From Escherichia coli (GTDB lineage: Bacteria; Pseudomonadota; Gammaproteobacteria; Enterobacterales; Enterobacteriaceae), in assembly GCF_003334405.1 (NCBI RefSeq), contig NZ_QOWM01000026.1: 37,729 nt of DNA, one strand, 5' to 3'. This document shows, in pieces, positions 35,611 to 35,686 of the stretch; the stretch's first letter is position 1; each line of letters starts with the position of its first letter. The notes beneath the pieces are model-generated. The model was not told the origin of the DNA and made no database searches. It worked only from the letters and a program-made list of their open reading frames with translations. The position numbers and the translations under genes were made by a program.

Positions 35611-35639
35611 GTCTGATGCGCTTCGCCTGTCAGGTCTAC
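35611..35639. repeat. REP element (variant)
   Basis: gtctgatgcgcttcgcctgtcaggtctac, about 80 percent identical to the REP at 18402. Confidence 0.7.
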
Positions 35640-35654
35640 AACCGGGCTAATGTA

Positions 35655-35686
35655 TGCCGGATAAGGCGTTTACGCCGCATCCGGCA
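35655..35686. repeat. REP element, forming a BIME with 35611
   Basis: tgccggataaggcgtttacgccgcatccggca, 31/32 identical to the REP at 18468. Confidence 0.85.

Follow-up and report, generated by a model that had tools for sequence, protein, structure and literature searches.

Two apparent BIME-1-type REP pairs between convergent genes of Escherichia coli: a candidate end-defining hairpin at yddE/nhoA and 3'-UTR cargo at yddM/fdnI

The REPs of Escherichia coli are imperfect palindromes of 30-40 nt with a GTAG at the foot, fall into types y, z1 and z2, and are usually paired in inverse orientation as BIMEs (Ton-Hoang et al.). BIME-1 elements join z1 to y through a long L linker, often with an IHF site, and occur singly; BIME-2 elements join z2 to y through short linkers and form arrays, and the number of BIMEs at a given locus is known to vary (Ton-Hoang et al.). 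The BIME-1 form has also been called the RIP or RIB element. Approximately 30% of convergent intergenic regions contain a REP, and convergent gene pairs with a REP show higher expression (Harris et al. 2026). REPs have been described as stabilisers of Rho-terminated mRNAs (Newbury 1987; Peters 2012; Dar and Sorek 2018), in which Rho terminates downstream and exonucleases trim the transcript back to a protective hairpin (Dar and Sorek 2018); an alternative published model has converging polymerases pause and collide at the hairpin. In addition, a REP that starts within 15 nt of an upstream stop codon has been reported to lower translation (Liang, Rudd and Deutscher 2015). Two REP loci that lie 17 kb apart are already named: the supplement of Harris et al. 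2026 gives, from EcoCyc, REP118 (1534884-1534958, yddE/nhoA) and REP120 (1552072-1552168, fdnI/yddM), each classed as 'Convergent'. The RepRanger supplements hold no entry for the genes at these loci.

Both elements lie in the stretch of DNA analysed here (the window, 37,729 nt), which spans gadC to yddH and corresponds to approximately 1.533-1.571 Mb of NC_000913.3 in reverse orientation. The window is part of a K-12-like E. coli chromosome, 99.92-99.98% identical to MG1655 but without one 178-bp unit, and hence close kin of MG1655 and not MG1655 itself. REP118 converts to window positions 35610-35684, in the 95-nt spacer between yddE (34710-35603, + strand) and nhoA (35699-36544, - strand), and REP120 converts to the fdnI-proximal unit of the locus in the 228-nt spacer between yddM (18065-18349, + strand) and fdnI (18578-19231, - strand). 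Both loci are intergenic and, as the original prediction had it, both pairs sit between convergent genes. That prediction further held that the REP at 35655-35686 differs by one base from that at 18468-18499, that the unit at 35611 is a diverged copy of the unit at 18402, and that the two pairs are the only obvious dispersed repeats in the window, all of which is borne out. Over 33 nt (18467-18499 and 35654-35686) the Y-type units are 97% identical with one mismatch, C at yddM/fdnI and T at yddE/nhoA, and a 32-nt Y query found 18468-18499 with no mismatches, 35655-35686 with one, and nothing in 100 dinucleotide shuffles. The other units are 84% identical (27/32) between 18400-18431 and 35609-35640. 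A comparison of the window's 25 intergenic spacers against 155 kb of MG1655 sequence from other regions gave multi-copy matches for these two alone, 21-23 per spacer and with the Y unit at their centre, and REP matches occur at a median of 19-31 places per genome among 5,426 genomes. The observation is real but already known.

On sequence grounds both loci appear to be BIME-1-type REP pairs, each with one Z1 unit, a linker and one Y unit in inverse orientation. The Z units are short and are assigned to Z1 because the Z2 at yafM is of the long form (Nunvar et al., Table 1). A BIME-2 assignment was rejected, both Z units being of the short form and neither locus an array: in the window there is a single unit at each locus, and the two units found at yddM/fdnI in MG1655 stem from segmental duplication of 178 bp with a terminator hairpin in it, unlike the arrays of BIME-2. 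The likeness to BIME-1 is strongest at yddM/fdnI, with its exact short Z, 34-nt L-class linker and inverted near-consensus Y. The yddE/nhoA locus shares the Z1-then-Y order and has a full-length L-like linker in strain elppa5, but in the window it differs from BIME-1 in its 12-nt linker and five Z1 substitutions, and at neither locus does the Y unit carry GTAG. Both Y units and the yddM/fdnI Z1 are predicted to fold as imperfect palindromes with an internal loop, and the Y units depart from the published 34-nt consensus only in the tail, at 2-3 positions.

At yddE/nhoA the Z1-type REP GTCTGATGCGCTTCGCCTGTCAGGTCTAC (35611-35639, + strand) has five mismatches to the short Z form and ends in CTAC at 35636-35639 (GTAG on the - strand); in other strains the canonical GCCTGATGCGCTTCGCTTATCAGGCCTAC stands at this position. 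It is followed by the 12-nt linker AACCGGGCTAAT (35640-35651), delimited by alignments and by comparison with L-type linkers elsewhere, and then by the Y-type REP (35652-35686, + strand), which has its palindrome core at 35656-35685 and begins with GTAT (35652-35655) where the family form is GTAG. In strain elppa5 the Z1 is canonical, the L-like linker measures 35 nt and GTAG-GCCGG is present, so that the linker here is 23 nt shorter, and because elppa5 has the full form and other strains intermediate states, the window's locus is a decayed BIME-1. The Z1 unit begins 7 nt after the yddE stop codon and the Y unit ends 12 nt from the nhoA stop codon, both within the 15-nt distance at which REPs lower translation, and by analogy such an effect may apply here; at yddM/fdnI the corresponding distances are 52 and 78 nt. 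For yddE, an effect of the Z1 unit on translation is doubtful because the unit is degraded and is not predicted to fold alone: it pairs only via G-U wobbles and is absent from the minimum-energy fold. Three substitutions in the K-12 Z1 stem all retain G-U pairing in the yddE-sense RNA, a pattern that chance would give about 1 time in 4 and that, with only three events, lacks significance. As a separate observation, an 8-nt inverted repeat, TGTCAGGT at 35628-35635 and ACCTGACA at 35687-35694, brackets the Y REP and is predicted to form an outer stem around its hairpin, using part of the degraded Z1 arm; the bracketing could be due to chance.

At yddM/fdnI the Z1-type REP (18402-18430, + strand) is an exact short Z form with CTAC at 18427-18430. 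The 34-nt L-type linker (18431-18464) belongs to a recurring CAATnTATTGrATTTG class that is also present at ubiA-plsB, at melB-yjdF and in the elppa5 allele of the other locus. The Y-type REP occupies 18465-18499 (+ strand), with TCAT (18465-18468) in place of GTAG, a change that lengthens the palindrome to TTCATGCCGGAT.../...ATCCGGCATGAA. On either side of the pair lies one copy of a local 34-nt direct repeat (18344-18377 and 18522-18555, 82% identical), and the two are diverged copies of a bidirectional terminator composed of A-tract, hairpin and T-tract. The left copy (18344-18377) stands directly 3' of the yddM stop codon and on the - strand was scored as an intrinsic terminator with a 7-T tail (match at 18352-18377); the right copy (18522-18562) lies on the fdnI side, where the published yddM and fdnGHI ends overlap at 18525-18562. 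Flanking direct repeats are not a general feature of BIME-1, being absent at ubiA-plsB, melB-yjdF and yddE/nhoA, and because the other Z1-L-Y elements compared lack it, the 34-nt duplication is specific to this locus.

The original prediction had also proposed that both pairs mark the sites where convergent transcripts end, which holds at yddE/nhoA and fails at yddM/fdnI. The end-mapping and rut data that bear on this come from MG1655-type strains and were taken from the preprint supplement of Harris et al. 2026. Its Table 16, which reproduces an earlier bidirectional-terminator dataset (ref 47 of Harris et al. 2026), lists terminator #123 at yddE:nhoA (MG1655 1534877-1534917, log phase), flagged REP118, with an RNA sequence that is the Y REP itself and a 17-bp stem, a 4-nt loop, -25.1 kcal/mol and no U-tract. 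The same table lists terminator #124 at yddM:fdnGHI (MG1655 1552007-1552044), with no REP flagged (Harris et al. 2026). In window coordinates #123 is 35651-35691 and brackets the Y REP at 35655-35686, and #124 is 18525-18562, a non-REP hairpin flanked by an A-tract and a T-tract that adjoins fdnI. The bidirectional-terminator dataset presumably originates with Ju et al. 2019. The yddE/nhoA locus is thus a listed member of the REP-associated bidirectional terminators and differs from them in nothing, whereas at yddM/fdnI the REPs are unlisted and only the adjoining non-REP hairpin is listed. Because the mapped ends fall at that hairpin, the BIME-1 lies in the yddM 3' UTR; the pair is only 3'-UTR cargo upstream of the real terminator and does not define an end.

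Table 15 of the same supplement gives an in-vitro Rho-binding rut site on the yddE strand at MG1655 1534700-1534866 (Harris et al. 2026), which converts to window positions 35702-35868 (+ strand, yddE-sense and antisense to nhoA). The listing places this site beyond REP118, 18-51 nt downstream, with a bicyclomycin-sensitive transcript overlapping it; another rut site overlaps REP120 by 59 nt (Harris et al. 2026). Stable stem-loops are predicted on both strands, with z-scores of -2.7 to -6.2. The yddE/nhoA locus resembles the REP stabilisers of Rho-terminated mRNAs in that a stem-loop lacking a U-tract marks the 3' end at steady state and is followed directly, on the yddE strand, by a rut site and a bicyclomycin-sensitive transcript; it is unlike them in that exonuclease trimming of the yddE transcript is only putative.

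Taken together, these data make it very probable that both loci are BIME-1-type members of a genome-wide REP family, with the Y hairpin defining the transcript ends at yddE/nhoA and the terminator hairpin defining them at yddM/fdnI. From its position we infer a causal role of the REP118 hairpin in 3' end formation. In both transcripts the Y REP would fold into a strong, G+C-rich stem-loop that lacks a U-tract and would pause or block RNA polymerases arriving from both sides and stop 3'-to-5' exonucleases. Transcripts of yddE that read through would be released by Rho at the downstream rut site and then trimmed back to the hairpin, leaving both mRNAs with sharp ends that bracket the Y REP. At yddM/fdnI the transcripts end at a bidirectional terminator hairpin of the conventional kind, and the 178-bp unit that carries the BIME-1 varies in number from strain to strain.

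The alternative that best survives, possible but not probable, is that the pairs are nothing but selfish mobile DNA in decay (REPIN-like doublets mobilised by the transposase YafM, the RAYT/TnpA-REP protein) and serve no host function, the convergent position being merely a tolerated site of insertion. The strain comparison bears on this alternative in both directions. The yddM/fdnI pair is dispensable, with alleles of 0, 1 and 2 units: the one-unit form matches over at least 80% of the query in 2,070 of 5,426 genomes, and evenly spaced rows of the match listing suggest, very roughly, one unit in 37% of genomes, two in ~17-20% and none in ~33%. In strain 41 the BIME is absent and there is one terminator hairpin; MG1655 and ATCC BAA-196 each carry the 178-bp unit twice and the hairpin three times. 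The middle hairpin in MG1655 is a right/left hybrid and is read, from its sequence, as a likely product of unequal crossing-over. An origin of the 0-unit allele as a simple recombinant of the window's two hairpins was rejected, as its single hairpin differs by three bases from each copy; the three hairpins (0-unit, left and right) differ in a star-like manner, with 2, 2 and 1 private changes. The stepwise decay of the yddE/nhoA Z1 arm and linker across strains is also what selfish DNA would be expected to show, as is the tolerance of an insertion at this locus in strain EP91A (NZ_CP149815.1, ~130-1575), where an IS1397-family IS3-like element lies in the loop of the Y REP between GGCGTTT and TTACGCC (window ~35672). 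IS1397 has been described as inserting into palindromic units, and the EP91A insertion matches this known REP-loop specificity.

Against a purely selfish origin, the yddE/nhoA pair is found at the same position in 5,151/5,426 complete genomes (~95%) and in 9/9 aligned alleles, and the Y REP and nhoA-side spacer are, by eye, the least variable parts of the nine alleles. Moreover, the transcript ends map exactly to the Y REP, and a terminator scan of the 95-nt spacer found no intrinsic terminator that could stand in for it. Other insertion sequences were noted around yddM/fdnI: in strain 23AR0303 (270-990) an IS200/IS605-family tnpA element lies just upstream of the single terminator hairpin of a BIME-less allele, and in LR-28 (1-440) an IS4 element replaces the yddM side and abuts the BIME-1. 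Pseudogene annotations among the strains were a frameshifted nhoA in O157:H7 H6437, a frameshifted yddM in ATCC BAA-196 and a truncated yddE in NMBU-W12E19.

The loss of GTAG from both Y units also speaks for decaying mobile DNA. GTAG/CTAC is present on both Z1 units and on neither Y unit in the window, which read TCAT and GTAT. The pairs resemble substrates of the REPIN/RAYT system (TnpA-REP, YafM) in their inverted doublet, the GTAG of the Z1 units and the stem mismatch, but their Y units lack GTAG and, judged by sequence, only one arm of each doublet looks competent. TnpA-REP needs GTAG for binding and cleavage in vitro (Ton-Hoang et al.), so the Y arms, and with them both Y copies, may no longer be mobile. 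Each loss lengthens the palindrome. At yddM/fdnI the GTAGGCC of LR-28 corresponds in the window to TCATGCC, which is exactly complementary to GGCATGA on the right flank and lengthens the stem; at yddE/nhoA the change of GTAG to GTAT, with GTAG still present in elppa5 and M70, adds one base pair. A tentative and rather unlikely proposal is that GTAG was lost through hairpin-templated quasipalindrome correction, which would turn a mobile REP into an immobile, stronger hairpin, and that the 178-bp terminator-flanked cassette, through its copy number of 0, 1 or 2, alters the yddM 3' UTR from strain to strain. The GTAG loss and the cassette between two diverged terminator copies at yddM/fdnI, both evolutionary, are the only features here that are uncatalogued.

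It is unlikely that the pairs act mainly at the DNA level, organising the chromosome by binding DNA gyrase, DNA polymerase I or, on the L linker, IHF. The yddM/fdnI linker is indeed of the class reported with an IHF site, and CAATCTATTGGAT (18441-18453) stands where BIME-1 linkers have the core of the IHF site; this putative core, however, matches the IHF consensus at only 7/9 positions (counted by eye), and the corresponding 23 nt are gone from the yddE/nhoA linker in this strain. Furthermore, neither chromosome compaction nor REP-REP contacts were found for a model REP (Harris et al. 2026), and strong gyrase binding has been attributed to BIME-2 and atypical BIMEs rather than to BIME-1.

More improbable still is that the REP hairpins act as classical Rho-independent terminators for both operons. 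Stable G+C-rich stem-loops, and published ends just past the Y hairpin on each side, are what such terminators would give, but the sequence after the Y stem has no T-run on either strand and, as noted, the scan was empty at yddE/nhoA. At yddM/fdnI the scan found no intrinsic terminator on the REPs, the sole match being the flanking hairpin at 18352-18377, and the A/T-flanked hairpins there are separate from the REPs; the rut site and bicyclomycin-sensitive transcript immediately downstream of REP118 also argue against intrinsic termination.

The original prediction had described the loci as sharing near-identical REP copies, which is true but was over-read, since both Y units lie near the family consensus. 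A 150-kb sample of MG1655 DNA from elsewhere contains 23 Y copies, eight with exactly the yddE/nhoA core and two with exactly that of yddM/fdnI, 31% of random Y pairs from the same DNA differ by no more than one base, and the single loop difference between the loci (GTGAAC versus GTAAAC, G/A) is the commonest variant of the Y family. Recent direct copying or gene conversion between the loci is accordingly most improbable: the one difference in 32 nt, the common Z1-then-Y order and orientation and the unusual ATGCCGG start of both Y units would fit it, but each Y core has exact copies elsewhere, the linkers and flanks are unrelated in length and sequence, and ATGCCGG arose separately, GTAG still being found at each locus in other strains. 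The resemblance is one of shared family membership and not of direct copying, of which there is no sign.

Two further REP-like sites were considered. The hairpin at 13644-13690, between the convergent genes ddpF and osmC, was rejected as a third REP as it is single-copy per genome; it is strong (-27.8 kcal/mol on the - strand), contains the REP-like motifs GCCTGATGCG and TGCCGGATG, and may be what is left of a REP or, alternatively, an independent terminator or stabiliser. The narU/narZ spacer (27903-27945) has an imperfect palindrome with a weak REP-like motif in it, GTCGGATGCGACA on the - strand; the site was rejected because it gave no matches in the external sample, and it might be the 'REP119' of EcoCyc. 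To our knowledge, no RNA family covers REPs. An Rfam scan of the whole window found only the SECIS of fdnG (SECIS_3, 84.3 bits, 22528-22586, - strand), a match that explains why the fdnG frame is split at an in-frame TGA into ORFs at 20121-22532 and 22581-23168.

REPs are the most abundant repeats of E. coli, and the two loci carry little weight beyond their correct annotation. They do provide a worked example in which, at yddE/nhoA, a REP hairpin sits on the ends of both transcripts, while its sister 17 kb away is 3'-UTR cargo. The occurrence of 0, 1 or 2 units, the linker deletions and the insertion-sequence insertions fit the published idea that REP content tunes expression between strains. 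If the loss of GTAG through extension of the palindrome should prove general at terminator REPs, it would constitute a route of REP domestication.
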